Shown here piece after piece: positions 4,062 through 64,000 of a DNA stretch of 64,000 nt. The stretch's first letter is position 1, and every line of letters starts with the position of its first letter. The DNA is from Eledone cirrhosa. Its lineage: Eukaryota. The DNA is taken from the NCBI GenBank assembly GCA_964016885.1, contig OZ024745.1:84320001-84384000 (forward strand), written 5' to 3'. A program made the translations under genes and the position numbers. The notes beneath the pieces were generated by a model. It saw only the letters and a list, made by a program, of their open reading frames with translations. It was not told the DNA's origin and did not search any database.

Positions 4062-4624
4062 AAAAAATGAAATTTCATTTCTCACTCTTAGTACGGCTGA
4101 TACTTAAATATAAGTATGTATACGTACATACATATATGTATACAGACGTACAGTAGTATGTATATATATACATACATGCACATATATATATATGTACGTA
4201 TGAGTTTACCGAACATTTATTATAATGCTCGGTTTCTTTGTAAACAAACAGTCCGAATTATTAGCCGTACAGTGTTCGGCAACAATCGTTGCCCTTTTGT
4301 TCAACACTGACAAAGGAACGATGAACTAGTTTCTAGCTTATTAGCTATCATCAGCACCGTATACCTTCCTGTCAGTCGTTTGAACGTTTGAAAGTATATA
4401 CTTTCCTTATGCATATTAACGGCTGAGCAGCCTAATTTGCATATCGAGTGAGTTAGTTCGCCGGGTGTACCGAAAACGATAAATGGAAAAAATGAAATCG
4501 TTTACAAACAAACCGTTCGGTAAATGTTCGTAAACCCATACGTACATATATATATGTGTGCATGTATGTATGTATATACATACTACTGTACGTCTGTATA
4601 CATATATGTATGTACGTATATATA

Positions 4625-4630
<6 letters not shown>
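4060..4630 (-). mobile_element. Dispersed copy of the 429-bp hammerhead monomer: full monomer on - (4060-4497) plus inverted partial copy (4500-4630), inside (TA)n
   Basis: Clear homology to the 52818-62575 array unit; terminal redundancy GGAAAAAATGAAA at both monomer ends. Confidence 0.92.
4318..4360 (-). ncRNA. Type I hammerhead ribozyme
   Basis: Minus strand: acggtg CTGATGA tagct-aata-agcta GAAA ctag TT catcgt; stems I and II pair, stem III palindromic. Confidence 0.88.
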
Positions 4631-4691
<61 letters not shown>

Positions 4692-10520: not shown

Positions 10521-10566
10521 AACACAACGTTTCGGTTGATATACTCTCCAGTCTTCATCAGGTGTT
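10521..10566 (-). ncRNA. Minimal type I hammerhead ribozyme
   Basis: Minus strand: aacac CTGATGA agactg-gagagtatat-caacc GAAA cg TT gtgtt; stem I 5 bp, stem II partly decayed. Confidence 0.7.
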
Positions 10567-37080: not shown

Positions 37081-37532
37081 CGGCGATGAATTAGTTTTGC
37101 GAGGTTTTTTATATGAAATCGTGTGTCGAAACAAATATTGTTATACTTGGGGAGGGTCATATTTGTGTAATATTGCCAGAATTAATAACAGAACACACTC
37201 ACTGTTTGGTTGGTTTTCGCTTTTCGCTGCTGTGTCTTTTATATCGGTAATCTAATTTATTCGGTCCTCAATGTTGCCATTGACTGACCGACGGTCAAAA
37301 ATAATACAGATACAATATAGACACAAACACATATATATAGTTTATCAAAGTTCTTTCGTTGCACATCTGCAACATCGTCAGTGGTGCTATTGTTTCCTCC
37401 CGTTACATTGTATGTCTACGCCATTTTTATTTAGTCTGTCTATATATTTATTTATTTGTTTGTTTGTTTGTTTATTTTATTTTGTCTTCTTTGCGCATGC
37501 GTTTGCGTGTGTGTATAGTGTTTTGTTTGATG

Positions 37533-37795
37533 TGTACTTGCAGAAACATGACAACAACATACATAGGCGAGACAGCTCGTAGCATAGGTGAAAGGATAGA
37601 CCAACACTGGGGAACTAAAAGGACGAAAAAACGGGTCAGTATACGAACATGCCAGACAACAACACGACGGTAACATAGACAACATAGAAATTAGAATAAT
37701 ATATAAACATAGAAATGACCCAGCAGATAGGCAAATCAGAGAGGCCAGTGAAATAGAACTTAGAAGGCCAAGACAGAAAGAATGAATGGAATAAC
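37533..37795 (+). pseudogene. Penelope GIY-YIG endonuclease fragment (frameshifted)
   Basis: CTCRNMTTTYIGETARSIGERIDQH, then in a shifted frame EHARQQHDGNIDNIEIRIIYKHRNDPADRQIREASEIELRRP, then RKNEW. Confidence 0.88.
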
Positions 37796-38096
37796 AACAA
37801 CACCCAAACAAACAACACTGACCTAAGAGAAGTATAAATAAATAAATAAATAGATAAATAAATAAATAAATACATACACAAGTACAATAACAACAAACAC
37901 ATATAAACACACACTAGTAAAGATAGAATACATAGAATACAATCACGAACACACATCAAACAAAACACTATACACACACGCAAACGCATGCGCAAAGAAG
38001 ACAAAATAAAATAAACAAACAAACAAATAAATAAATATATAGACAGACTAAATAAAAATGGCGTAGACATACAATGTAACGGGAGGAAACAATAGC

Positions 38097-38138
38097 ACCA
38101 CTGACGATGTTGCAGATGTGCAACGAAAGAACTTTGAT
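38097..38138 (+). ncRNA. Hammerhead-like motif (mirror copy 37344-37385 on -)
   Basis: acca CTGACGA t-gttgca-gatg-tgcaac GAAA gaac TT tgat; core and stem II good, stem I weak. Confidence 0.62.
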
Positions 38139-38339
38139 AAAATATATATATGTGTTTGTGTCTATATTATATCTGTATTATTTTTGACCGTCGGTCAGTC
38201 AATGGCAATATTGAGGACCGAATAAATTAGATTACCGATATAAAAGACACAGAAGCGAAAAGCGAAAACCAACCAAACAGTGAGTGTGTTCTGTTATTAA
38301 TTTAGGCAATATTACACAAATATGACCCTCCCCAAGTAT

Positions 38340-38391
<52 letters not shown>

Positions 38392-39162: not shown

Positions 39163-39504
39163 TCTCATTGAGAACTTGTTCTTTCTCAGCTGAGCTGTTG
39201 TGCGTGCTAGAGAACGGATAGTGATATGACTACAAGATATGGTGATTAGTTGTGACATCCGTGGGCTCCTGCCAAACGAATAGACAACCCAGAACCAAAC
39301 AACGGTCAATTACTAGGGGACAAGAAACAATAGATAACATTTTTGGCTCTCAGGAAAACTCTCAAAACCCAGTGTGTAGTTGTAGAAGATATATGCCATG
39401 TTTCGTCCTATGAGATTTCTATAATTATTTTCATTTCTTCAGAAATTCTACTGTTTTGAAACAATTCTCGATTCTTTTGTTCAATAGAATTTTGCTGATT
39501 GTAT

Positions 39505-40572
39505 ATATGTATCTTGTTGTTTCTATATCTGTATCTTCCTGTTTGTATATCTGTATCTTCTTGTTTCTATATCTATATCTTCTTATTTCTATATCTATGT
39601 CTTCCTGTTTGTATATCTGTATCTTCTTGTTTCTATATCTATATCTTCTTGTTTGTATATCTGTATCTTCTTGTTTCTATATCTGTATCTTCTTATTTCT
39701 ATATCTATATCTTCTTGTTTCTATATCTATATCTTCTTATTTCTATATCTATATCTTCCTGTTTCTATATCTTCCCGTTTGTATATCTGTATCTTCTTAT
39801 TTCTATATCTATATCTTCTTGTTTCTATATCTATATCTTCTTGTTTCTATATCTGTATCTTCCTGTTTCTATATCTATATCTTCTTGTTTCTATATCTGT
39901 ATCTTCTTGTTTGTATATCTGTATCTTCTTGTTTCTATATCTATATCTTCTTGTTTGTATATCTGTATCTTCTTGTTTCTATATCTATATCTTCTTATTT
40001 CTATATCTGTATCTTCTTGTTTCTATATCTATATCTTCTTATTTCTATATCTATATCTTCCTGTTTCTATATCTATATTTCCTGTTTCTATATCTATATC
40101 TTCTTGTTTCTATATCTGTATCTTCCTGTTTGTATATCTATATCTTCCTGTTTCTATATCTATATCTTCTTATTTCTATATCTATATCTTCTTATTTCTA
40201 TATCTGTATCTTCTTATTTCTATATCTGTATCTTCTTGTTTCTATATCTATATCTTCTTATTTCTATATCTATATCTTCCTGTTTGTATATCTATATCTT
40301 CCTCTTTCTATATCTGTATCTTCTTGTTTCTATATCTATATCTTCCTGTTTCTATATCTATATCTTCTTATTTCTATATCTATATCTTCTTATTTCTATA
40401 TCTATATCTTCTTATTTCTATATCTATATCTTCTTATTTCTATATCTATATCTTCCTATTTGTATATCTATATCTTCGTGTTTCTATATCTATATCTTCT
40501 TATTTCTATATCTATATCTTCTTATTTCTATATCTGTATCTTCTTATTTCTATATCTATATCTTCTTGTTTG
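39505..40572. repeat. 22-bp minisatellite (GTTTCTATATCTATATCTTCTT), roughly 48 copies
   Basis: Direct inspection; 22-aa periodicity in the three stop-free frames. Confidence 0.95.
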
Positions 40573-40957
40573 TATGTTGACACTTATATTAACGTTTGAA
40601 AAGTCTGAGGAATATGTAATTTAGAAGCAATTTCACGTACAATATGATATTCCTGATAAATTGACACAATGATTCTCCAAACTTCATTTGAAATTCTGAT
40701 TCTCAGGTTGACCATGCCTGGTGTTAATAATACCGTTGATAAACACTTAATTTAAGTTGACAATAAACAAATTAATGTTAAAGGCGACATCGAAATCGAC
40801 GATGACGGAATGAAATTTGGTGATGACGTAATTGAGAAAGACGATAACGTAATTGAGATTGGCGATAACGAGATTGGGGTTGATAATGGGAAATTTGAAG
40901 AAGAAACTACATATGTGTTTCCAACCTTTGCTAACAAGGAAAATGGAAGTTAAATGT

Positions 40958-41155: not shown

Positions 41156-43819
41156 TCTATATATATATAAAACGGTAGATGTCTGTCTGTGTGTGTGTAT
41201 GATTTTTATGCATTTCCACATTTCTCTACCGATTTTGATGATTTTTTTTCCAATGTGCTCCAAATTTACCAAGTCAGGTCAACGCGTAATAATGTTTGTC
41301 AAAGATTTCCTGCTTCTATGAAAAAAAATCGATAAAACTAAATACATGCTGTAACCCTCTCTCTTACACGCTTCATTCCTCTCACTACTACCATCAAAAT
41401 ATATGAAACTACATACATGTTGCAACTCTCTTTAAAAAGGTTCATCCTTTCCTCTACTCCATCCTCAATCTCCTCTTCAACTCTCTTTAAAAGATTTATC
41501 ACTCTCTCTACTCCCCCCTCAATCTCTTCTGCAACTCTCTTTAAAAGGTTACTGCCTCCGTCTACTACTCTATCACCATTACAATTTAGAACAACGACAA
41601 AACTTCTTTTGAAGGAACGCGACACAAACTTTGAAACCTAAGCAACACAACAGCCATAGCTTTACTCTCTCCGTCGCTCTTCTCTCTATATATAATAGAT
41701 CATTCCCCCCTATTCGTTCGGGAACGCGAAAAAAACTTTGATAACTAAGCAACACATCATTTTATACAACAACAAACAGTCATAACGACACTCATACATC
41801 AAATATCAAAATTTAAAAAGCCGATAACACTAAATACATACTGCCCTCTCAACGTTACATTTTACTCACTTACATTTTACATCAAATAACAAATATTCAA
41901 AAGCAACAGATGAATTTATAAAACAACAAACGTAACAATAACGACGCTTAAGCATTTATTTACATGATTCTCAACAAAGACATATTTTATTGTTGTCCTT
42001 TTTGTAATTTTCTTTCTTTGTTTTTCTCAATATGAGACAAAAAATTAATGGGAACTTTTTTCACGGGATTCTATTCAAAGTCGGGACAATTATTGCTTTT
42101 GGTCAGGAGAAGGTCATGAAGCAAAAAAAATTCCAATCAATCAACAATAGGGGCAAAAATCGATCATGATCATTCCCCCTCTTTATAATTTAACTGCTTT
42201 ACTCTCTCTGTCGCTCTTCACTCCCTATATGACAACACAGCAGAGAGAGAAACAATGTATATGATCAAATGGAGCGTTCCGTATATTCCCCCTCTCTATA
42301 ATTTAACTGCTTTACTCTCTCTGTCGCTCTTCACTCCCTATATGACAACACTGCAGTGGAGCGTTCCGTATTGACATACGGCTTATCTGGGGCATTTTCA
42401 ATCGGCGTATTGCAAATATCAACCCACAAAATAACACTTCATATAACAGATTAATGTTATAGACATATGAATCGGAATGTAACCCGTGAACTTTTTCCTG
42501 GGCAAAATTATTCGAACAGACATGACCTCATTGCCAGAGTGTTCAGACTGAAACTGGTTAAACTCATGGCTTTAATCAAAAAGGTCAGGTATTTGGAGCT
42601 GTAAAATGTGACATGTTCACCGTCGAATGGCAAAAACGAGGGCTGCTACATGCTCATATTTTGATTTGGTTAGCTGATAAAATCAATTCAAATGCCATAG
42701 ACAGCTTCATTTCTGGCTGAAATCCCTAACCCAGCAACTGACCAGGAATTACATGACATCGTCAAAGGTAACATGATTCATGGTCCGTGTGCGTCGGGTC
42801 CTAATGAGCATCACACGTGTCTGAAAGGGGGGGGGTCGTGCAGTAAGGGATACCCCAAATAATTTGTTGACCAGACTCAGACTGGTGGCGACGGGTACCC
42901 CCTGTACAGGCGGAGACGGCCCGAGAACGGTGGCTTCACCACAACAGTAAGGGGAAGTCAAGTCGACAATAGATGGGTGGTCCTTTACTGCCCGCTTCTC
43001 TTGAAGATGTTCAACGCCCACATCAACGTTGAGTTTTGCAACTACGTCAAGTCGATAAAATACATATGCAAATATGTAAATAAGGGCTCTGATGCCGCAA
43101 TGTTCGCATTTCAATCTGAAAATAGCATGGACGAGGTCACAGAATACCTGGCGGGGCGGTACATCAGTAGCAATGAAGCTTTTTGGCGCCTATTTGGTTT
43201 ACCCCTACACCAACGTCACCCCGGCATCGTACAGCTTGCGGTACATTTGGAAAATGGGCAAAGGGTTTACTTTACGGACCAAACCGCCGCCAAGTTGGCC
43301 GCCGATCCGAAAGAGACCACTCTGATGGGTTTCTTCAAACTTTGCCAGTTCGATACATTTGCGCAAACAATTGTGTACTCCCAGGTTCCATCCTACTTTA
43401 TATGGTCGAAAAACACTTGGGTGCGAAGAAAGTCAGGTAAGGCTGCTGAAAGACATCCTGGTGTAAAATTTGACAGCTTGGAAGGGTTTACACTGTGCCC
43501 CCAAGTCAGCATGAGTGCTTTCATCTCCGCCTTCTTCTGCATGAAGTTGTAGGCCCACAAAGTTTTCAGGACATCAAAACTGTTGATGGAGAAATATGTG
43601 ATACGTACCGGCAAGCCTGCTTTAAGCGTGGTCTTTTGGAAGATGATTCGCAATGGGATTCCATTTTAGCAGAGGGTGCTTTGTTGAAATCACCTAAATG
43701 TCTACGGGAACTCTTTGCTATTTTGCTTCAAAAGTGTGAATTGGGTGATCCCAAATCTTTAAGGGTCAAGTACAGAGACTTCATGTCTGAGGACTTCCTG
43801 CGCCGGGCAGAACTGCTAG
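41156..43819 (+). mobile_element. Internally deleted Helitron with Rep-domain pseudogene (~42420-43800)
   Basis: 5' A|TCTATATATATAAAA...GTCTGTCTGTGTG and 3' GCGCCGGGCAGAACTGCTAG|T. Rep motifs RHDLIARVF, VEWQKRGLLHAHILIWL (HUH), MIHGPC, FNAHINVEFC..VKSIKYICKYVNKG, GRYISSNEAFWR, VHLENGQ. No helicase domain. Confidence 0.88.
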
Positions 43820-44611: not shown

Positions 44612-44650
44612 TCGAACGCGCAACCAGACAGCACCTAAGAAAATATCAAC

Positions 44651-47600
44651 ATGGACATGTCACAAACGACAGAGGCCGAGATTTCAGAGCTGCGGGCTAT
44701 GATCAGAGAGCGGGCTGGTCAAATTAAAGCCCTCTCGAATCAAGTAGAGAACTTGACTTTTCAAATACACCGGCGACGCAGCAACAGTCGATCCAAGCCT
44801 TTTCACAGTCGAAGATCCAGTAGTCCCAGTCAAAATCGTGTGCCTGGCAACCTCTGCTGGTATCACACAAATTTCGGCGCACAGGCATTTAAGTGCAAAG
44901 CCCTGTGCTCTTTCCGGAATGCCACCCAGGGCCTGGCGACGACGTTCACCCCTGGTACTGAAAAGAAAATTCGTCTATTTTTTATTAACGACCAGGCGAC
45001 AGGCATCCGTTACCTCGTGGATACAGAAGCCCAGGTTAGTGTTATTCCTGTTTCACTAATCTCGGGCAAAAGACACCCAACCCCGTCCTTTCTGCAGGCA
45101 GTGAACCAATCGTCAATTCCGACTTTCGGGGAGAAGTCTCTGACCCTCAATTTAGGCCTGAGGCGGCATTATCAATGGGTGTTTGTCGTGGCAGACCTGC
45201 CGACCCCTATCCTAGGAGCCGATTTTCTCCACCACTTCAACCTTCTGGTGGATATGAAGAACCGGAGGCTTATTGATACCACCACAAACCTCACTGTGAG
45301 AGGTATATTTACCACGAATCCACAGTGGGCCCTGTAATTTCCCAGTCAGAGCCTTCGCGGTACAACGGCATTCTCCAGAAATACCCAGACATCACTCGCC
45401 CGGTATTTAAGGATGGTCCTATTAAGCATAGTGTCACGCACCACATCGAGACAAAGGGACCACCCACAGCTGCCCGACCAAGGAGACTGCCTCCAGACCG
45501 ATTGAGAATCGCCAAGCAGGAGTTCCAACACATGCTGGACCTCGGAATCATTCGCCCTTCCTCCTAGCAACTGGTCTGCACCCCTACACCTTGTTCCAAA
45601 AAAAAAACGAGAATAATTGGCGACCATGTGGGGATTATCGTGCACTTAACAATTCTACAGTGCCCGATAATTACCCTTTACCTCACCTGCACGATTTTTC
45701 CGCCTCTCTGCAAGGCGCACGTATCTTTTCCAAGGTAGATTTGGTGCGTGCATATAACCAGATACCTATGGAGCCTGCAGACATTCCGAAGACCGCAGTC
45801 ACAACACCGTTCGGTTTATTCGAATTTCTGCGAATGCCGTTCGGTCTGCGCAACGCTGCACAAACTTTTCAGCAGTTTATTGACACCGTGTTACGCGGTC
45901 TACCCTTCGTATATGCGTATATTGAAGACGTGCTGGTAGCAAGTACTTCCGAGCATGAACATGAGAAGCACTTAGATCTCCTTTTCCAACATTTGGCTGA
46001 GTACGGTATCATCATCAACCCTAGCAAGTGCCTTCTCGGCGTTCCTTCACTGTCCTTTCTCGGGCACATCATCGATAAAGACGGCATTCGTCCACTTCCC
46101 GAGAAAGTAGAAGCTATCCGCAGTTTTCCCGCACCTACATCACTTCGGAAACAGCGTGAATTCCTCGGTCTGGTGAATTTTTATAGGCGGTTTATCCCTC
46201 ATTGTTCCGACGCAGCCAGACTCCTCACGGACCTTCTTCGTAACCGGACTCGCAAAAACGAAGAGATCACTCTAAACGAGGAAGAATTAACATCTTTTAA
46301 CCGCCTGAAGGAAATGTTGGCAAACGCTTCCATGCTCGTTTTCCCCAGGTCTGGCGCTCCCCTTTCGCTGCTAGTGGACGCATCAGACACGGGGGTTGGA
46401 GGCGTTCTACATGTCGACGGCGTGTGGCAACATGTCGACAGCGTGTGGCAAGCCTCGTCCTTCTTTTCTAAGCGGTTGCAACCGGCAGAAACGAAATACA
46501 GTACCTTTGGCCGCGAACTCTTGGCAACCTATCTTTCGGTTTAGAATTTTCGGCACATGCTCGAAGGATCAGATTTCGTGATCTACACGGACCATAAACC
46601 ATTAATTTATGCGTTCCGTACTAAACCTGATCGACATTCACCGAGAGAACTCCGACACCTGGATTTTGTCTCCCAATATTCAACTGATATTCGGCATATC
46701 AAGGGATCAGACAACGTAGCAGCCGACGCCCTGTCCCGAATCCAGCTGAACGCAATACATGTGCATTCAGGCATCGACCTTCAACAGATCGCAGCTGAAC
46801 AAGAGACTGACGAAGAGTTTATCAAGCTCCGAGATTCGCCATCCCTCAAGTTTCAGCAAGTTCCCATTCCTTCTTCTCCGGGACAAATTTGGTGCGACCT
46901 TTCTACCGGTCATGAACAACCGTACGTACCACAGATGCATCGTCGACAAGTTTTTTCTGCTTTACACTGCTTGTCTCATCCGGGAATCCGGGCTACACAG
47001 AAACTCATCTCTGCTCGTGGTGTGTGGACTAACATTAACAAGGACGTGCGCGACTGGTCCAGGAGCTGCATTGCCTGCCAGAAAGCCAAAGTCCACAGAC
47101 ACATCAAAACTCCACTCGGCACATTCGCGCAACCTGATGCACGTTTTCATCATGTGCATATCGACTTCGTCGGACCGCTACCACCATCACAGAACTACAC
47201 ACATTTGCTCACCTGCATAGATCGATTTTCTCGTTGGCCTGAGGCTTTTCCCATAAATGATACCTCAGCGGAAACAGTCGCTAAAACTTTGGTTTTACAC
47301 TGGGTATCACGTTATGGCGCCCCAGCGAAGATAACAACGGACAGAGGACGCCAATTTGACTCCCACCTCTTCAGGGAACTGACTCGCCTGTTAGGATGTA
47401 AACACATCCGCACGACAGCTTATCACCCGCAAGCTAATGGTCTCGTGGAAAGATCCCATCGTCAATTGAAAGCTGCAATAAAAGCATATCCAGACAAGAC
47501 CCACTGGTTTGAATACCTACCACTCATCCTTCTGGGCATTCGATCCACCGTTAAAGAGGAATTCGGACACACACCTGCAGAATTAGTGTACGGCGCACCA

Positions 47601-48061
47601 CCCTGGTCCTACCTGGTCAGATGGTTGCTCCCATCTCTCCTCAGGATGTTCCAGACCCAGGATCATACGTACACCGTCTTCGACAATATATGTCTCACCT
47701 TGCTCCTGCAAGCACCCGTCAACAGAACACAGCCACACACGTACCTTCAGACATTAAAGATTGGACACACGTTTTCGTTCGAAACGACACCATCTCAGCT
47801 CATCTCCGACCTCCATATTCTGGCCCTTATCGTGTTCTAAAAAAATATCCGAAATATTTTATTCTCGATCTAGATGGTAAACAGAATTCTGTCAGCGTGG
47901 ACAGATTAAAAAAAGCCATCATGGATACTGTTACAGTCTCTACACCAGAAACTCCAACAGATTGCTGTCCCAGCGAGCCACCTGTTTCATCTCCAGTCAC
48001 GAGAAGCGGACGACGCGTCCATTGGCCCGCCAAGTTGGCACAATATGTGAATTACCGGTAA
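44651..48061 (+). pseudogene. gag-pol pseudogene (Gag C-terminus, protease, RT, RNase H, integrase)
   Basis: CWYHTNFGAQAFKCKALC; protease LVDTEAQVS (DTG altered); [31 protein letters not shown] (YIDD altered); [12 protein letters not shown]; IN H..SHPG...[40 protein letters not shown]. Stops and frameshifts near 45320, 45567, 46544, 47600. Confidence 0.95.
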
Positions 48062-49190: not shown

Positions 49191-50636
<1,446 letters not shown>

Positions 50637-52148: not shown

Positions 52149-52299
<151 letters not shown>

Positions 52300-52387
52300 T
52301 TATATATATTTATATATTTATATATTTATATATCTGAAAGACGGAAAATAAGAAAATTATAAAAATTAGATTATGTACTAAAATTTC

Positions 52388-52470
52388 ACTCCAACTAATT
52401 AGTTTCTGAAAGGGAATAAACATGGTTTCCGAATGGAACACGTGGGGAAGGCCTTTCGTCATCAGGAAGT
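52388..52470 (-). ncRNA. Type I hammerhead ribozyme
   Basis: Minus strand: acttc CTGATGA c-gaaagg-(~35 nt)-cctttc-a GAAA ctaattag TT ggagt; palindromic stem III. Confidence 0.8.
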
Positions 52471-52817
52471 CTATTCTCGGCAAAGTTCCCAGGCGATGCG
52501 TGGACACAGGGAACTTATACAAAAATAATTCAGTGGATGGAAAAAAGCAAGCGTGGACTAAATTCCAAGACATTGACAAAATCACTGCCTACTTGGTCGG
52601 TGGCAAATTCAAAAGAATCAATCACGTGACATCGAGGTTAATCAGTGAGGAGTGGGGTGTTAAGAAGACAGTCGAGTAGGTATGCATCTGTATATATATG
52701 TTGGTAGATATACTAATTCTTTATAATTATCTCCAAATTATTTTGTTGAGCAAACATTTGCCAAAACTTTACTATAGTTCATAGTAATAGTTCGGCTACT
52801 GTCTTCTTAACGCCCAC

Positions 52818-53464
52818 TGTACGTATGGATTCACCGAACATTTATTATAATGCTCCATATGTTTGTAAGCAAACATCCCTATTAAGATGTAGTGTCCAGC
52901 AACCATCGTTGCTCGTTTGTTCAACACTGAGCAAGGAACGCTGTAGTAGTTTCAAACTTCTTAGCTATCGTCATCAACGTATACCTTCCTGCCAGATTGT
53001 TGAACGTATATACTTACCTTATACATATTAACGACTGAGTAGCCCAATTTGCATATCGAGTGGGTTAATCGGCCGGCTGCATCGAAAACGATAAACGGAA
53101 ATACTGAATAGAAATTTCATTTCCCACTATTAGTACGGCTGTTACTTAAATATAAGTATGTATGCGTACATACATATATGTATACAGACGTACAGTAGTA
53201 TGTATATATATATACATGCATGCACACATATATATATGTACGTATGGATTCACCGAACATTTATTATGATGCTAGGTGTGTTTGTAAATAAACATCCCGT
53301 ATTAAGTCGTAGTGTCTAGCAACCACCGTTGCTCGTTTGTTCAACACTGACACAGGAACGCTATACTAGTTTCAAGCTTATTAGCTATCGTCAGCAACGT
53401 ATACCATCCTGCCAGATGATTGAACATCCGAAAGTATATACATTCATTATGCATATTAACGGCT
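52818..53464 (-). repeat. Inverted ~1.5 monomers of the 429-bp unit at the array's left edge
   Basis: Reverse complement of the unit; intact core TCGTCAG at 53388-53394, decayed core near 52968. Confidence 0.92.
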
Positions 53465-53477
53465 TAATAAGGGATGG

Positions 53478-56400
53478 TTGTCAGTGTTGAACAAACGAGC
53501 AACGGTGGTTGCTAGACACTACGGCTTAATACGGGATGTTTGTTTACAAACACACCGAGCATTATAATAAATGCTCGGTGAATCCATACGTACATATATA
53601 TATGTGTGCATGTATATATATATATATACATACTACTGTACGTCTTTATACATATATGTATCTACGTATACATACTTATATTTAAGTAACAGCCGTACTA
53701 AGAGTGGGAAATGAAATTTAGTTTCACTTTTTCCGTTTATCGTTTTCGGTGCACCCGGCCGATTAACCCACTCGATATGCAAATAGGGCTACTCGGCCGT
53801 TAATATGCATAAGGAAAGTATATACTTTCGGATGTTCAATCATCTGGCAGGATGGTATACGTTGCTGACGATAGCTAATAAGCTTGAAACTAGTACAGCG
53901 TCCCTTTGTCAGTGTTGAACAAATGAGCAACGGTGGTTGCTAGACACTACGGCTTAATACGGGATGTTTGTTTACAAACACACCGAGCATTATAATAAAT
54001 GCTCGGTGAATCCATACGTACATATATATATGTGTGCATGTATATATATATATATATACATACTACTGTACGTCTGTATACATATATGTATGTACGTATA
54101 CATACTTATATATAAGTAACAGCCGTACTAAGAGTGGGAAATGAAATTTGGTTTCATTTTTCCGTTTATCGTTTTCGGTGCACTCGGTCGATTAACCCAC
54201 TTGATATGCAAATTGGGCTACTCAGCCGTTAATATGCATAAGGAACGTATATTATTTCGGACGTTCAATCAGCTGGCAGGATGGTATACGTTGCTGACGA
54301 TAGCTAATAAGCTTGAAACTAGTACAGCGTCCCTTTGTCAGTGTTGAACAAATGAGCAACGGTGGTTGCTAGACACTACGGCTTAATACGGGATGTTTGT
54401 TTACAAACACACTGAGAATTATAATAAATGTTCAGTGAATCAGCACGTACTTATATATATATGCCTGCATGTATGTATATATATAGACATACTACTGTGC
54501 GTCTGTATACATATATGTATGTACGTATACATACTTATATTTAAGTAACTGCCGTACTAAGAGTGGGAAATGAAATTTCGTTTCTTTTTTCCGTTTATCG
54601 TTTTCGGTGCACTCGGCCGATTAACCCACTTGATATGCAAATTAGGCTACTCAACCGTTAATATGCATAAGGAAACTATATACTTTCGGACATTCAATCA
54701 TCTGGCAGGAAGGTATACGTGCTAACGATAGCTAATAAGCTTGAAACTAGTACAGCGTTCCTTTGTCAGTGTTGAACAAACGAGCGACGGTGGTTTGCTA
54801 GACACTACAGCTTAATACGGGATGTTTGTTTACAAACACACCGAGCTTTATGATAAATGTTCGGTGAATCCATACGTACATATATATATATGTGTGCATG
54901 TATGTATATATACATACATACTACTGTACGTCTGTATACATATATGTATTTACATATACATACTTATAATTAAGTAACAGCCGTACTAAGAGTGGGAAAT
55001 GAAATTTTGTTTCTTTTTTCCGTTTATCGTTTTCGGTGCACTCGGTCGATTAACCCACTTGATATGCACATTAGGCTACTCAACCGTTAATATGCATAAG
55101 GAACTATATACTTTCGGACGTTCAATCATCTGGCAGGATGGTATACGTTGCTGAAGATAGCTAATAAGCTTGAAACTAGTACAGCGTTCCTTTGTCAGTG
55201 TTGAACAAACGAGCGACGGTGGTTTGCTAGACACTACAGCTTAATACGGGATGTTTGTTTACAAACACACCGAGCTTTATAATAAATGTTCGGTGAATCC
55301 ATACGTATATATGTGTGTGCATGTATGTATATATACATACATACTACTGTACGTCTGTATACATATATGTATGTACGTATACATACTTATATTTAAGTAA
55401 CAGCCGTACTAAGAGTGGGAAATGAAATTTCGTTTCTTTTTTCCGTTTATCGTTTTCGGTGCACTCGGCCGATTAACCCACTTGATATGCAAATTAGGCT
55501 ACTCAACCGTTAATATGCATAAGGAAACTATATACTTTCGGACGTTCAATCATATGCCAGGAAGGTATACGTTGCTGACGATAGGTAATAAGCTTGAAAC
55601 TAGTACAGCGTTCCTTTGTCAGTGTTGAACAAACGAGCAACGGTGGTTGCTAGACACTACGGCTTAATACGGGATGTTTGTTTACAAACACAGCGAGTAT
55701 TATAATAAATGTTCGGTGAATCCATACGTAAATATATATATATATGTGTGCATGTATGTATATATATATACATTCTACTGTACGTCTGTATACATATATG
55801 TATGTACGTATACATACTTATCTTTAAGTAACAGTCGTAATAAGAGTGGGAAATTAAATTTAGTTTAATTTTTTCAATTTATCGTTTTCGGTGCACCCGG
55901 CCGATTAACCCACTCGATGTGCAAATTAGGCTACTCAGCCGTTAATATGCATAAGGAAACTATATACTTTCGGACGTTCAATCATCTGGCAGGAAGGTAT
56001 ACGTGCTAACGATAGCTAATAAGCTTGAAACTAGTACAGCGTTCCTTTGTCAGTGTTGAACAAACGAGCAACGGTGGTTACTTGACACTGCGGCTTAATA
56101 CGGGATGTTTATTCACAAACACAGCGAGCATTATGATAAATGTTCGGTCAATCCATACGTACGTATATATATATGTGTGCATGTATGTATATATATATAC
56201 ATACTACTGTGCGTCTGTATACATATATGTATGTACGTATACATACTTATATTTAAGTAACAGCCGTACTAAGAGTGGGAAATGAAATTTGGTTTCATTT
56301 TTCCGTTTATCGTTTTCGGTGCACTCGGTCGATTAACCCACTTGATATGCAAATTGAGCTACTCAGCCGTTAATATGAATAAGGAAACTATATGCTTTCG

Positions 56401-59400
56401 GACGTTCAATCATCTGGCAGGATGGTATAGGTTGCTGACGATAGCTAATAAGCTTGAAACTAGTGCAGCGTTTCTTTGTCAGTGTCGAACAAACGAGCAA
56501 CGTTGGTTGCTAGACACAACGGCTTAATACGGGATGTTTGTTTAAAAACACACCGAGCATTAAAATAAATGCTCGGTGAATCCATACGTACATATATACG
56601 TGTGAATGTATGTATACATATATATACATACTACTGTACGTCTGTATGCATATATATATGTACGTATACATACTTATATTTAAGTAACAGCCGTACTAAG
56701 AGTGGGAAATGAAATTTGGTTTCATTTTTCCGTTTATCGTTTTCGGTGCACTCGGTCGATTAACCCACTTGATATGCAAATTGAGCTACTCAAACGTTAA
56801 AATGCATAAGGAAACTATATGCTTTCGGACGTTCAATCATCTGGCAGGATGGTATACGTTGCTGACGATAGCTAGTAAACTTGAAACCAGTGCAGCGTTC
56901 CTTTATCAGTGTTGAACAAATGAGCAACGGTGGTTGCTAGACACTACGGCTTAATACGGGATGTTTGTTTACAAACACACCGAGCATTATAATAAATGCT
57001 TGGTGAATCCATACGTACATATATATATGTGTGCATGTATTTATATATATATACATACTACTGTACGTATGTATACATATATGTTTGTATCTATACATAC
57101 TTATATTTAAGTAGCAGCCGTACTAAGCGTGGGAAATGAAATTTCGTTTCATTTTTCCGTTTATCAATTTCGGTGCACTCGGTCGATTAACCCACTTGAT
57201 ATGCAAATTGGGCTACTCAGCCGATAATATGCATAGGGAAAGTATATACTTTCGGACGTTCAATCATCTGGCAGGAATGTATAGGTTGCTGACGATAGCT
57301 AATAAGCTAGAAACTAGTACAGCGTTCCTTTGTCAGTGTTGAACAAACGAGCAACGGTGGTTTGCTAGACACTACAGCTTAATACGGGATGTTTGTTTAC
57401 AAACACACCGAGCTTTATAATAAATGTTCGGTGAATCCATACGTACATATATATATATGTGTGCATGTATGTATATATACATACATACTACTGTACGTCT
57501 GTATACATATATGTATGTACGTATACATACTCATACTTAAGTAACAGCCGTACAAAGAGTGGGAAATGAAATTTCGTTTCATTTTTCCGTTTATCAATTT
57601 CGGTGCACTCGGTCGATTAACCCACTTGATATGCAAATTGAGCTACTCAGCCGTTAATATGCATAAGGAAAGTATATACTTTCGGACGTTCAATCATCTG
57701 GTAGGATGGTATACTTTGCTGACGATAGCTAATAAGCTTGAAACTAGTACAGCGTTCCTTTGTCAGTGTTGAACAAACAAGCAACGGTGGTTACTAGACA
57801 CTGCGGTTTAATACGGGATGTTTGTTTACAAACACAGCGAGCATTATAATAAATGTTCGGTGAATCCATACGTACATATATATATATGTGTGCATGTATA
57901 TATATATATATACATACTAATGTGCGTCTGTATACATATATGTATGTACGTATACATACTTATATTTAAGTAACCGACGTACTAAGAGTGGGAAATGAAA
58001 TTTCGTTTCATTTTTTCCGTTTATCGTTTTCGGTGCACCCGGCCGAGTAACCCAGTCGATATGAAAATTGGGCTACTCTGCCGTTAATATGCATAAGGAA
58101 ACTATATACTTTCGGACGTTCAATTATCTGGCAGGAAGGTATACGTTGCTGACAATAGCTAATAAGCTTGAAACTAGTACAGCGTTCCTTTGTCAGTGTT
58201 GAACAAACGAGCAACGGTGGTTTGCTAGACACTACGGCTGAATACGGGATGTTTGTTTACAAACACACCGAGCTTTATAATAAATGTTCGGTGAATCCAT
58301 ACGTACATCTATATATGTGTGCATGTATGTATAAATATATATATATATACATACTATTATACGTCTGTATACATATACATACGTATACATACTTATATTT
58401 AAGTAACAGCCGTACTATGAGTGGGAAATGAAATTTCGCTCCATTTTTTCCGTTTATCGTTTTCGGTGTAACCGGCCGATTAACCCACTCAATATAAAAA
58501 TTGGGCTACTCAGCCGTTAATATGCATAAGGAAAGTATATACTTTCAGACGTTCAATCACCTGGCAGGAAAGTATACGTTGCTGACGATAGCTAATAAGC
58601 TTAAACTAGTACAGCGTTCCTTTGTCAGTGTTGAACAAACGAGCAACGGTGGGTTGTTGGACACTACGGCTTAATACGGAAAGTTGGTTTACAAACACGC
58701 CGAGCATTATAATAAATGTTCGGTGAATCCATAGGTACATATATATATATGTGTGCATGTATGTATATATATATATATATACTACTGTACGTCTGTATAC
58801 ATATATGTAGCTACATATGCATACTTCTATTTAAGTAACAGCCGTACTAAGAGTGGGAAATGAAATTTAGTTTAATTTTTTCAGTTTATCGTTTTCGGTG
58901 CACCCGGCCGATTAACCCACTCGATATGCAAATTAGGCTACTCAGCCATTAATATGCATATGCAAACTATATACTTTCGGACGTTCAATCATCTGGCAGG
59001 AAGGTATAAGTGCTAACTATAGCTAATAAGCTTGCAACTAGTACAGCGTTCCTTCGTCAGTGTTGAACAAACGAGCCACGGAGGTTTGCTAGACACTACA
59101 GCTTAATACGGGATGTTTGTTTACAAACACACCGAGCTTTATGATAAATGTTCGGTGAATCCATACGTACATATATATATTTGTGTGCATGTATGTATAT
59201 ATACATACATACTACTGTACGTCTGCATACATATATGTATGTACGTATACATACTTATATTTATGTAACAGCCGTACTAAGAGTGGGAAATGAAATTTCG
59301 TTTCTTTTTTCAGTTTATCGTTTTCGGTGCACGCGGTCGATTAACCCACTTGATATGCAAATTGGGCTACTCAGCCCTTAATATGCATAAGGAAATTATA

Positions 59401-62400
59401 TACATTCGGAAGTTCAATCATCTGGCACGAAGGTATAGCTTGTTGACGATAGCTAATAAGCTTGAAACTAGTACAGCGTTCCTTTGTCAGTGTTGAACAA
59501 ACGAGCAACGGTGGTTTGCTAGACACTACAGCTTAATACGTGATGTTTGTTTACAAACACACCGAGCTTTATAATAAATGTTCGCTGAATCCATACGTAC
59601 ATATATATATATGTGTGCATGTATGTATATATATATATATATACTACTGTACGTCTGTATACATATATGTAGCTACATATGCATACTTCTATTTAAGTAA
59701 CAGCCGTACTAAGAGTGGGAAATGAAATTTAGTTTAATTTTTTCAGTTTATCGTTTTCGGTGCACCCGGCCGATTAACCCACTCGATATGCAAATTAGGC
59801 TACTCAGCCATTAATATGCATAAGCAAACTATATACTTTCGGACGTTCAATCATCTGGCAGGAAGGTATACGTGCTAACTATAGCTAATAAGCTTGCAAC
59901 TAGTACAGCGTTCCTTCGTCAGTGTTGAACAAACGAGCCACGGAGGTTTGCTAGACACTACAGCTTAATACGGGATGTTTGTTTACAAACACACCGAGCT
60001 TTATAATAAATGTTCGGTGAATCCATACGTACATATATATATATGTGTGCATGTATGTATATATACATACATACTACTGTACGTCTGTATACATATATGT
60101 ATGTACGTATACATACTTATATTTAAGTAACAGGCGTACAAAGAGTGGGAAATGAAATTTCGTTACATTTTTTCCTTTTATCGTTTTCAGTGCACCCGGC
60201 CGATTAACCCACTCGATATGCAAATTGGGCTACTCTGCCGTTAATATGCATAAGGAAAGTATATACTTTCGGACGTTCAATTATCTGGCAGGAAGGTATA
60301 CGTTGCTGACGATAGCTAATAAGCTTGAAACTAGTACAGCGTTCCTTTGTCAGTGTTGAACATACGAGCAACGGTGGTTGCTAGACACTACGGCGTAATA
60401 CGGGATGTCTGTTTACAAACACACCGAGAATTATAATAAATGTTCGGTCAATCCATACGTACATATATATATATGTGTGCATGTATGTATATATATATAC
60501 ATACTACTGTACGTCTATATACATATATGTATGTACGTATACATACTTATATTTAGGTAACATCCGTAATAAGAGTGGGAAATGAAATTTCGTTTCATTT
60601 TTCCGTTTATCGTTTTCGGTACACCCGCCGATTAACCCACTCGATATGTAAATTGGGCTACTCTGCCGTTAATATGCATAAGGAAAGTATATACTTTCGG
60701 ACGTTCAATCATCTGGTAGGATGGTATACTTTGCTGACGATAGCTAATAAGCTTGAAACTAGTACAGCGTTCCTTCGTCAGTGTTGAACAAACGAGCCAC
60801 GGAGGTTTGCTAGACACTACAGCTTAATACGGGATGTTTGTTTACAAACACACCGAGCTTTATGATAAATGTTCGGTGAATCCATACGTACATATATATA
60901 TTTGTGTGCATGTATGTATATATACATACATACTACTGTACGTCTGTATACATATATGTATGTACGTATACATACTTATATTTAAGTAACAGCCGTACTA
61001 AGAGTGGGAAATGAAATTTCGTTTCTTTTTTCAGTTTATCGTTTTCGGTGCACGCGGTCGATTAACCCACTTGATATGCAAATTGGGCTACTCAGCCCTT
61101 AATATGCATAAGGAAAGTATATACATTCGGAAGTTCAATCATCTGGCACGAAGGTATAGCTTGTTGACGATAGCTAATAAGCTTGAAACTAGTACAGCGT
61201 TCCTTTGTCAGTGTTGAACAAACGAGCAACGGTGGTTGCTAGACACTACGGCTTAATACGGGATGTTTGTTTAAAAACACACAGAGAATTATAATAAATG
61301 TTCGGTGAATCCATACGTACACATATATATGTGTGCATGTATGTATATATATATACATACTACTGTGCGTCTGTATACATATATGTATGTACGTATACAT
61401 ACTTATATTTAAGTAACAGCCGTACTAAGAGTGGGAAATGAAATTTCGTTTCTTTTTTCCGTTTATCGTTTTCGGTGCACTCGGTCGATTAACCCACTTG
61501 ATATGCAAATTAGGCTACTCAACCGTTAATATGCATAAGGAACTATATGCTTTCGGACGTTCAATCATCTGGCAGGATGGTATACGTTGCTGACGATAGC
61601 TAATAAGCTTGAAACTAGTACAGTGTTCCTTTGTCAGTGTTGAACAAACGAGCAACGGTGGTTGCTAGACACTAGGGCTTAATACGGGATGTTTCTTTAC
61701 AAACACACCGTGCATTATAATAAATGCTTGGTGAATCCATACGTACATATATATATGTGTGCATGTATGTATATATATATACATACTACTGTACGTCTGT
61801 ATACATATATGTTTGTATCTATACATACTTATATTTAAGTAGCAGCCGTACTAAGCGTGGGAAATGAAATTTCGTTTCTTTTTTCCGTTTATCGTTTTCG
61901 GTGCACTCGGTCGATTAACCCACTTGATATGCAAATTAGGCTACTCAACCGTTAATATGCATAGGGAAAGTATATACTTTCGGACGTTCAATCATCTGGC
62001 AGGAAGGTATAGGTTGCTGACGATAGCTAATAAGCTAGAAACTAGTACAGCCTTCCTTTGTCAGTGTTGAACAAACGAGCAACGGTGGTTTGCTAGACAC
62101 TACAGCTTAATACGGGATGTTTGTTTACAAACACACCGAGCTTTATAATAAATGTTCGGTGAATCCATACGTACATATATATATATATGTGCATGTATGT
62201 ATATATACATACATACTACTGTACGTCTGTATACATATATGTATGTACGTATACATACTTATATTTAAGTAACAGGCGTACAAAGAGTGGGAAATGAAAT
62301 TTCGTTACATTTTTCCTTTTATCGTTTTCAGTGCACCCGGCCGATTAACCCACTCGATATGCAAATTGGGCTACTCTGCCGTTAATATGCATAAGGAAAG

Positions 62401-62575
62401 TATATACTTTCGGACGTTCAATTATCTGGCAGGAAGGTATACGTTGCTGACGATAGCTAATAAGCTTGAAACTAGTACAGCGTTCCTTTGTCAGTGTTGA
62501 ACATACGAGCAACGGTGGTTGCTAGACACTACGGCGTAATACGGGATGTCTGTTTACAAACACACCGAGAATTAT
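53478..62575 (+). repeat. Head-to-tail array of ~21 monomers of ~429 bp, one hammerhead position per monomer (retrozyme/satellite-like)
   Basis: Cores near 53865, 54294, 54722, 55151, 55575, 56006, 56435, 56862, 57289, 57719, 58149, 58582, 59013, 59444, 59875, 60306, 60734, 61164, 61590, 62017, 62447; mean spacing ~429. Confidence 0.96.
53859..53901 (+). ncRNA. Representative array hammerhead ribozyme (type I)
   Basis: acgttg CTGACGA t-agct-aata-agct-t GAAA ctag TA cagcgt; stem I can extend via ctggca/tgtcag across an internal bulge; GUA cleavage triplet. Confidence 0.9.
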
Positions 62576-62576
62576 C

Positions 62577-62631
62577 TGTTAGAACACGAAAAGTGTGAAA
62601 CAACAGAATGTTCACTTTTCGTGTTCTAACA
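62577..62631. repeat. Perfect 19-bp inverted repeat directly after the array end
   Basis: TGTTAGAACACGAAAAGTG (62577-62595) / CACTTTTCGTGTTCTAACA (62613-62631). Confidence 0.9.
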
Positions 62632-64000
62632 TATATGCGTAGCTTCTTAAAAAATTTTTCGGGGATAGCCGTGGTGGTGGTGATCGTATGTCATTGGCTA
62701 ATTTTCAACCAATCAGAGTACCTCTCTCTATATCTCTTCCACTGTTACTTACGCCTGTTTCTCTCTATCTGTTCCGTCTCTATATATATCTCTTACTCTT
62801 TCGCTTTGCACTCCTCCCCTTCAATACCATCTCTCCCCCTCTCTATATATTTGTTACTCTATCGCTGCACGCTCCTCTCCTTCAATATATCAATTACACA
62901 CGCTTTACACTCCTTTATCCCCAGCGCCCCTATATATACCCCCCCCCATCTCCCGCATCTATATTTTAATGTACCGTTGCACCGTGAATATATGTGTCTA
63001 TATATATATACATATATATTGTATATACACATTCATGTATGTGTATACACACTCATGTATGTATATACACTGGTTTTATGTGTGTATTGTAAATTTGTAC
63101 TGTTAAAACACGAAACTAACATTCGATTGACACTTTGAGTACCTGTACAGGCAATAGTTATTAGAATGCTGTTGAAGTGTGTATATATTTTTGGGGGACA
63201 TCCTGTATATACACACATTATATATAATACAATAAACAGATAAATACACACATATATATATGAGCTTATTTAATTATAAATATTGTGAATTTTTAACTCA
63301 GTTCAATTATATATATAAATGGTTTCTACAGGACTAGAACTGTTTCATTCGAAAGAAATCATCATAATATTGAGAGTGGGGACTAGATAAAATATTTCAA
63401 ATCAAATGTGTATAAGTTATAAGTTAAAATGTATAAATAGAGACGATAGTGGAGGTATATCTGTTTAGTGGAACAGTAGACGATAGAATTAAATACAGAC
63501 GATAATCTCCCTTTAATGAAACAGCAGACGATAGAATTAAGGCAATTTAAATTTTAAGCATTTGCATTTTTGCCTTTCATCGTTACGGGGTCGATAAAAT
63601 AAAGTACCAGTAATACACTGTCAATAGACGACTTTCAAATTGAATTGTTGGTTCCATTTCTTTAGTATTTTCAATTGTAGTTATCTACTTAAAAAGCGTT
63701 ACACGGTTAGAGACATAATTCGTAAGTTATATCTTCCCTATTAAACCATTGCATTATTTCGCCTACAATAGAACAAAAATGAAATGTTCTTTAAAGAAAC
63801 AGGAATATAACTTTATAAAAAAAAAAGTTGCATCCGCTTCTTTTATCATTGATAATTTTTTCGTTTTAATATTAATTGTTTTTTGTAGTTGTTTATATTA
63901 AAAATCTTACTGTAATATTTACTTAAACGAAGGCAAACATCTAAACTTATAGATTAATCTTGAGCGAAGGACTAGATAAATCTCTCTCCCTCTCTCTCTC

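Follow-up and report, generated by a model that had tools for sequence, protein, structure and literature searches.

A hammerhead-ribozyme satellite of the octopod Eledone cirrhosa and its retrozyme family, with insertions of Penelope-like anatomy

A 64,000-nucleotide stretch of the genome of the octopod Eledone cirrhosa (contig OZ024745.1 of assembly GCA_964016885.1, positions 84,320,001 to 84,384,000, forward strand; hereafter the window) contains a satellite-like array whose unit of about 429 bp carries a hammerhead ribozyme motif. Which enzyme inserts a non-coding repeat of this kind, and from what form of its RNA? For animal retrozymes, both the mobilising enzyme and the role of circular RNA as template are posed as open questions (PMC7229834, PMC7761336, bioRxiv 10.64898/2026.07.22.740005). 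The array belongs to a large dispersed family, which gives a countable genomic answer on the mobilising enzyme; a link to Penelope-like elements (PLEs) had previously been mostly proposed, not read from insertion sites. The arms of the array and the parts of its unit are as follows:

53478..62575, plus strand, continuing outside the window to G000:C5:84433788: direct arm, 21.2 units of about 429 bp (tandem call and arm mapping)
52818..53464, minus strand: inverted arm of 1.5 units, head-to-head with the direct arm, its outer end at unit position 127
53896..54324, plus strand: one monomer, bounded by two predicted cuts, 429 nt and 37% GC, the reference for unit positions
53844..53912, plus strand: first type I hammerhead, predicted cut after 53895
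54014..54100 (unit about 119-205), plus strand: AT-rich microsatellite hairpin inside the unit, where variation in unit length arises
54107..54114 (unit about 212-219), plus strand: putative start site 1, the fixed 3' end of dispersed arms, inside a small hairpin loop
54115..54169, plus strand: 55-nt "tail" between the two fixed ends, with a purine/pyrimidine hairpin; putative start site 2 is unit position 274 (54169)

Unit position 1 is the base that follows the predicted cut (window 53896). Arms of the family were mapped at 86 loci, comprising 55 taken in place order from the start of contig C1, the 12 best BLAST matches and 19 loci of a young variant. Arms of at least 60 bp and clear of the locus edge were counted, yielding 143 (one locus yielded none). 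Two end bins, at unit positions of about 205-222 (site 1) and about 254-276 (site 2), together make up about a tenth of the unit, and 123 of the 143 arms end in them, 53 at site 1 and 70 at site 2, with 20 ending elsewhere. The bins were set after the early loci had been seen; in the 19 loci first examined after that, 27 of 33 arms fit. Nearly all arms ending at a site run directly into (TA)n (112/123). Among 48 head-to-head pairs, 12 include an unclassified end, 35 have one end at each site and a single pair has both at site 2, so that, of the 36 pairs that could be classified, 35 use a different site at each end (binomial p about 1e-9). Genome-wide, the exact site-2/(TA)n junction was counted 5,752 times against 5 for the control, and its read-through form 7,037 times. 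The 5' ends of arms are spread over unit positions 4-416 (n=114, from loci mostly selected by the core and hence biased), and none lies at the predicted cut among 30 matches selected outside the core. Some 5' ends that apparently started at position 1 were rejected on finding that the sequence extends into the core. Because the arm ends sit in (TA)n, target-site duplications are unreadable.

The window itself holds a compact example of such an insertion:

4070..4634: second, dispersed copy of the family, with a minus-strand arm at 4070-4497 and a plus-strand arm at 4500-4634 (arm mapping)

Its minus arm contains a hammerhead with an intact core (cut after 4324) and ends near site 2, the plus arm ends at site 1, and both enter (TA)n.

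PLE insertions are described as having an inverted 5'-truncated copy and a 30-40-bp tail at one end, with a bias towards (TA)n in Neptune and Naiad (PMC8557442, PMC3846280). The tail has been explained by two internal start sites of the reverse transcriptase (RT), both target strands being cut and extended (PMC11167929), and the pseudo-long terminal repeats (pLTRs) of PLEs can act in trans (PMC3846280). The Eledone insertions show the same features, with an inverted 5'-truncated head-to-head arm, two 3' ends with a one-sided tail and a (TA)n target. Because the fixed two-site ends, one-sided tail, inverted arm and target match this published signature, the retrozyme insertions were very probably made by PLE machinery. 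We infer that site 1 is a start of reverse transcription and that priming uses one of the two sites for each target strand. The preliminary description of the window had proposed a non-autonomous hammerhead retrozyme family mobilised by a Penelope-type RT by analogy with known systems; the insertion anatomy supports this proposal and replaces the analogy.

There is a close likeness to insertions of Neptune-type endonuclease-bearing PLEs, which share the inverted 5'-truncated arm, a tail at one end, two internal 3' ends, an AT-rich or (TA)n target and a hammerhead upstream of the ends (PMC8557442, PMC3846280, PMC11167929). In contrast to these elements, the retrozyme has no open reading frame (ORF), its tail is 55 nt instead of 30-40, the repeated unit is the whole element and the arms can hold many units. 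The longest ATG-initiated frame in the direct arm is 81 aa, far from the RT and GIY-YIG ORF of an autonomous PLE. Potential helpers are abundant: the genome contains 10,597 GIY-YIG candidates, of which 150 were scored and 46 PLE loci read. Sixteen longer loci have open frames of up to 938 and 1096 aa with an RT, a Cx4CxxC linker and, at the C terminus, the GIY-YIG region, and the linker marks the Neptune and Nematis types (PMC8557442, PMC3846280). A 3' hammerhead-like motif with a palindromic stem III is present at 23 of the 46 loci, one further match being judged spurious. In one PLE family two ends about 68 nt apart enter (TA)n, and two families have the same U.U under stem II as the Eledone unit. 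To judge from these sequences, the helper is most likely an endonuclease-bearing PLE of Neptune type. At least four Neptune-type families are young and have long open frames (L101 at G000:C1:145.87 Mb, L103 at C1:83.81 Mb, L104 and L107); in two young families of this type the ribozyme core has U3 and A8 instead of C3 and G8.

The first hammerhead is composed of a proximal stem I (53859-53864/53896-53901), a core beginning at 53865, a stem II (53873-53876/53881-53884) over a U.U base and a palindromic stem III (53889-53894), and its extended stem I reaches 53844/53912. The topology is type I, with a 6-bp proximal stem I extended through a bulge, a 4-bp stem II and a stem III, one or two pairs long, that the palindrome closes; between two copies a 6-bp stem III duplex is possible, computed at -4.8 kcal/mol. 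Defined as CUGANGA, GAAA and UH around a three-way junction closed by stem I, the type I core and junction are present in the unit and complete at 12 of 23 positions. The motif had been described as occurring at the same place in each unit, which holds at all 23; the 11 core bases are intact in 14, and together with the cleavable base 17 in 12. Alignment and folding bore out the description of stems I and II, of the ACTAGT palindrome and of a stem I that can be extended, and the self-complementary blocks reported within the unit are present (a 16-mer in 8 exact copies, 10-mers in 14-15).

In the predicted hammerhead structure 91.6% of cells are paired, compared with 27-48% in slid structures. 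An alignment of 22 copies (20 distinct; 16 of the 22 picked through the core pattern) reveals one stem I pair that changes on both sides, appearing as U-G, G-U, A-U and C-G. At the base of stem II, 18 of the 20 distinct rows have U.U and 2 have U-A, in place of a G10.1-C11.1 pair. Canonical animal hammerheads have a helix I of 6 bp, a helix II of 4 bp and a helix III of 1-2 bp with a palindromic loop, and their dimers are active (PMC4209133). The axolotl ribozyme HHR_Amex2 has the same U.U under helix II, and its dimer cuts much better than its monomer (PMC7229834).

An Rfam scan had been suggested as a check on the motif, and over the whole window it returned nothing at gathering score; for 52.5-56.5 kb, no hammerhead family is among the best 150 of 162 Rfam matches. 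When the 101-nt motif was submitted alone, the best of three matches was Hammerhead_HH9, over the whole model, at 15.8 bits (E 0.11). Matches of miRNA families to the AT hairpin were rejected as compositional. Folds of 74-nt hammerheads are no better than those of shuffled sequences in 3 of 4 cases. Circular folds of the monomer have z scores of -6.8 and -4.0 on the plus strand and -8.7 and -2.9 on the minus strand, and within the folded circles ribozyme stems I and II form in the first unit and in the unit of locus L156, not in unit 57320. Self-cleavage by the hammerhead is plausible on the evidence of its sequence, and in young copies the ribozyme is likely to be active.

A 30-nt core pattern matches the genome 24,753 times (12,715 forward, 12,038 reverse), and the reversed control gives 0 matches. 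Dispersed loci range from monomer to multimer and have the attributes of retrozymes, being tandem, non-coding and low in GC, with one type I hammerhead per unit. A second, longer subfamily, B, has units of 466 to about 540 bp, and a pattern taken from outside the core matches it 11,820 times; its identity to the window unit drops to 43-62% at positions 31-120. Since 27 of the first 30 subfamily B matches carry the core despite this low identity elsewhere (one has a single change, and two are truncated before the core), the core is conserved between subfamilies while the rest of the unit drifts. At one locus (L130, G000:C1:19.62 Mb) two near-identical head-to-head insertions lie 2.6 kb apart, and because their breakpoints are identical, the pair is a later segmental duplication. 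Among four sequencing runs of unrecorded kind, one (X1) gave 7,142 contigs; in other organisms the contigs were few and of low depth, 1 in one organism and 4 in another, too thin a basis for a claim, and a depth peak over the core in a further run (X5) was set aside.

Multimers may carry information about the template from which they were copied. Twelve loci have at least three full units on a strand, and five of them are near-homogeneous, with 0-3 substitutions between neighbouring units; at L156 (G000:C1:50.60 Mb), seven full units over both arms differ by 0-1. Two of the twelve, L224 and L127, show an ABAB alternation of units. L224, picked for reading because its spacing alternated, has nine units in which neighbours differ by 13 substitutions and alternate units by 0 over most of the locus. 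Its ends are site 2 and site 1, and the basal pair of stem II is lost in every second ribozyme, the last excepted; at L127 a stem I mismatch affects every second ribozyme. Such a pattern would follow because a transcript cut solely at intact ribozymes would yield a dimer circle. If this is correct, ABAB insertions would be direct footprints of dimer circles, and hence of cleavage in vivo.

These observations suggest a cycle in which tandem copies would be transcribed and their hammerheads, probably paired through the palindromic stem III, would cut out monomers, with dimers released where one ribozyme is damaged, and monomers and dimers would be ligated into circles. The PLE protein would then cut a genomic run of (TA)n on both strands, and cDNA would begin at two fixed places in the unit, 219 and 274 nt downstream of the cut site, each strand using one of them. 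The RT would pass the ribozyme junction and go on copying over one unit or as many as ten or more, and the head-to-head junction of the two cDNAs would fall at variable points. The window's array may have started out as such an insertion, given its inverted arm and a far end at site 1 in (TA)n, and would then have aged and been enlarged as satellite DNA through duplication of multi-unit blocks. That the family is a non-autonomous, non-coding, non-LTR retrozyme parasitising PLEs by way of ribozyme-made circles is a reading we hold to be fairly likely, and for the circular RNA template taken by itself we lean, a shade more cautiously, in the same direction. The cycle in full, with a Neptune-type PLE carrying out rolling-circle reverse transcription of monomer and dimer ribozyme circles from two fixed sites and the longest products seeding satellites of tens of kilobases, is offered tentatively, its chances falling somewhat short of even. 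The circle hypothesis can be tested with a young unit, two predicted cDNA starts, a predicted target, open PLE frames and multimers in which alternate ribozymes are damaged.

Several observations tell against this reading. On the side of the ribozyme, covariation amounts to a single pair in rows mostly picked through the core pattern, stem II lacks the G-C base pair described as highly conserved (PMC4209133), and the 15.8 bits of the Hammerhead_HH9 match are far under the gathering score of 52. The nearest tested design, axolotl HHR_Amex2, cuts just 22% as a monomer (PMC7229834), and 8 of 9 Xenopus dimers showed no cutting in vitro (bioRxiv 10.64898/2026.07.22.740005). In the large array the core is kept no better than the median site. 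On the side of the helper, no autonomous PLE sharing the unit sequence was found among the 46 loci, nearby inserted copies aside, nor did a relaxed-core pattern find one; its 12 matches were mostly mutated family copies, two having the stem II of a PLE family that carries the hammerhead-like motif. Regarding the template, 5' ends do not pile up at the cut, which fits circles and uncut linear RNA equally. Five of the 12 multimer loci are heterogeneous (L162 partly because of unrelated neighbours), and the ABAB pattern comes from two loci, one of them selected by spacing; with 13-16 differences, chance damage to a helix is not unusual, and the identical pattern would arise if a two-unit array were transcribed as linear RNA. 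Finally, for an anole PLE, cleavage is dispensable, unprocessed RNA is the main template and no reads end at the cut site (PMC11167929).

In one alternative, the same PLE insertion proceeds on linear, uncut read-through transcripts of tandem loci; no circle would then be needed, the hammerhead would act weakly or with help from protein as part of a PLE-type 3' signal, and homogeneous or ABAB multimers would be copied from homogeneous or two-unit source arrays. All the arm-end evidence fits such a template equally, the anole PLE provides a precedent, the U.U base makes for a weak stem II, and the heterogeneous short multimers L033, L160, L162 and L173 are as expected from the transcript of an aged array. 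Nevertheless, the core and helices are kept between subfamilies despite drift elsewhere, both the seven near-identical units of L156 and the nine-unit ABAB locus with every second ribozyme damaged are simpler to derive from circles, and circles have been shown for the retrozymes of coral, mussel and axolotl, for which PLEs are strong mobilisation candidates (PMC7229834). A linear template is held to be the less likely, though it is the most serious of the alternatives to ribozyme-made circles.

The unit might, alternatively, be the pLTR, that is the 3' end, of an undiscovered autonomous PLE, with the copies representing 5'-truncated stumps and tandem pLTRs. The pLTRs of PLEs in this genome agree with it in hammerhead design, in having two ends and in the (TA)n junction, just 46 of more than 10,000 candidate PLE places were read, and of 57 retrozyme families in Xenopus 24 have matches to known elements, nearly always PLE ends (bioRxiv 10.64898/2026.07.22.740005). 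We consider this improbable given that in the loci read arms as long as 16 kb contain nothing but the unit and that the three retrozyme copies close to PLE frames were inserted separately, lying beyond the PLE's own end as well as (TA)n or other repeats.

The history of the large array is of a different kind. Tandem Repeats Finder calls a direct tandem of period 429 at 53478-62575, with 21.2 copies and 91% matches, bearing out the tandem array of hammerhead-bearing units of about 429 bp reported in the preliminary description. That account had taken 52818..62575 as one tandem, which is right for 53478-62575 but not for 52818-53464, the inverted arm, whose two hammerhead positions would be cut after 53364 (core intact) and after 52944 (decayed). 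The right boundary given at 62575 is a true break, but the array resumes beyond a 3,521-bp insertion. In total the array measures about 61 kb and ends about 50 kb past the window, and the far end, at G000:C5:84433788, is start site 1 joined to (TA)n. In 134 kb read, 130 full plus-strand units were found. They differ by 8% on average, neighbours being no closer than distant units; near-identical blocks of 12, 4, 6 and other unit sizes recur, with 20 near-identical pairs at lag 12. The hammerhead core is intact in 93 of the 130 units and changes at 3.4% per site, compared with a median of 2.7% and a mean of 5.0% elsewhere (74 distinct unit types, array only).

As these higher-order repeats and the neutral decay of the ribozyme show, the array grew by DNA-level duplication: it is old, was enlarged after insertion, and its ribozyme decays neutrally there. 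The family had been called RNA-amplified, which fits the dispersed copies but not the large array. Likewise, a core kept no better than the rest of the unit had been named as grounds for doubting the ribozyme; between subfamilies the core is kept, and inside the array it is not (3.4% against the 2.7% median). Ordinary satellite DNA spreading at the DNA level, with a hammerhead-like motif present by chance or as a fossil, would agree with the 20 pairs at lag 12, the roughly 8% divergence, the neutral decay of the core and the sub-threshold Rfam score, yet it is very improbable for the family, where arm-end mapping largely refutes it, unequal crossover being unable to scatter copies by the tens of thousands that share fixed 3' ends and a tail on one side while their 5' ends vary, and it accounts solely for the later history of the window array. 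The locus illustrates one way in which a retrotransposed RNA can give rise to a satellite array of about 61 kb. Other long heterogeneous arrays of the family occur at L157-L158 (G000:C1:53.354-53.370 Mb; about 34 units, with an inverted arm ending at site 2) and at L173.

The class of element to which the family belongs is already known (PMC7229834, with a mollusc among its cases; bioRxiv 10.64898/2026.07.22.740005), and the new part is the insertion anatomy that ties a retrozyme to PLEs. With the metazoan non-LTR retrozymes it shares tandem non-coding units measuring a few hundred bp, a GC content under 45%, a single type I hammerhead in each unit, sizes from dimers to long multimers and, less certainly, a self-paired predicted circle (PMC7229834). 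The mollusc tested there is a mussel with units of 350-390 bp, whereas the Eledone unit measures 420-540 bp, has an internal AT microsatellite and resides in an octopod; its insertion ends show the PLE tail and inverted arm, and it is known here from DNA alone. Li, Clavereau and Pollet, working mainly on vertebrates, present retrozymes as non-autonomous PLE derivatives on the basis of co-occurrence and pLTR similarity, and their retrozymes have in common with this family PLE dependence, dispersed monomers, clustered multimers and local satellite-like growth (bioRxiv 10.64898/2026.07.22.740005). Here, by contrast, the link comes from the anatomy of the insertions, and the 46 PLE loci yielded no pLTR homology; the words "tail", mollusc and cephalopod are absent from the available text of that preprint. 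In the available part of a giant squid paper, 235 Hammerhead_1 matches are counted without analysis. A search of the mostly open-access literature, with the PMC7229834 supplement, Repbase and Dfam outside its range, found no octopus retrozyme and no PLE tails on retrozyme insertions.

Older systems offer a further likeness, made here by description. Newt satellite 2 and schistosome SM-alpha are tandem hammerhead repeats whose stem III, a short palindrome, functions in dimers; the Eledone array resembles them in its tandem hammerheads and palindromic stem III and differs in host and unit.

On either side of the array in the window lie sequences of other origin:

52152..52817, no strand: left flank, a (TA)n run (52152-52333) followed by a different repeated element (52334-52817)
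62576..64000, no strand: first 1.4 kb of the unrelated 3,521-bp insertion, which splits the array at unit position 98

The element at 52334-52817 hides the outer end of the array's inverted arm. It has a hammerhead-like core of its own (52465, minus strand), ends at (TA)n and has relatives in at least seven other loci, and it is probably another PLE-dependent non-coding family. Beyond the 3,521-bp insertion (62576-64000 and G000:C5:84384001-84386096) the array picks up again outside the window at the same unit position. The insertion contains a 212-bp internal inverted repeat and can be read as starting with TC, ending with CTAG and placed between A and T; such ends between A and T are typical of Helitrons, one possible reading of the insertion.

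Further hammerhead-like cores occur in the window in opposite-strand pairs, at 37135-38347 and 49878-50636, with motifs also at 10561/10797, 18273/20421, 23882/23962 and 36227. Two of these sit in confirmed inverted arms, and they look like ordinary PLE stumps of other families. Tandem Repeats Finder also identified a 22-bp minisatellite at 39502-40575 (49 copies, 90% matches). Open frames are found at 948-2069, 42863-43552 and 44639-47840; by their motifs the first resembles the RT of a long interspersed nuclear element, the second a piece of a Helitron helicase and the third the protease, RT and integrase of an LTR retrotransposon. Elsewhere in the genome, molluscan hemocyanin domains gave 39 matches; one unit scores 855 bits with PDB 1js8 (octopus), 738 with 4yd9 chain C (squid) and at most 514 with the best units of 3j32 and 8trz (gastropods), which points to an octopod host. 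Copies of the hemocyanin gene were encountered as three in tandem at G000:C1:173.7-173.9 Mb, as an inverted pair at C26:21.9-22.0 Mb, and on C27.

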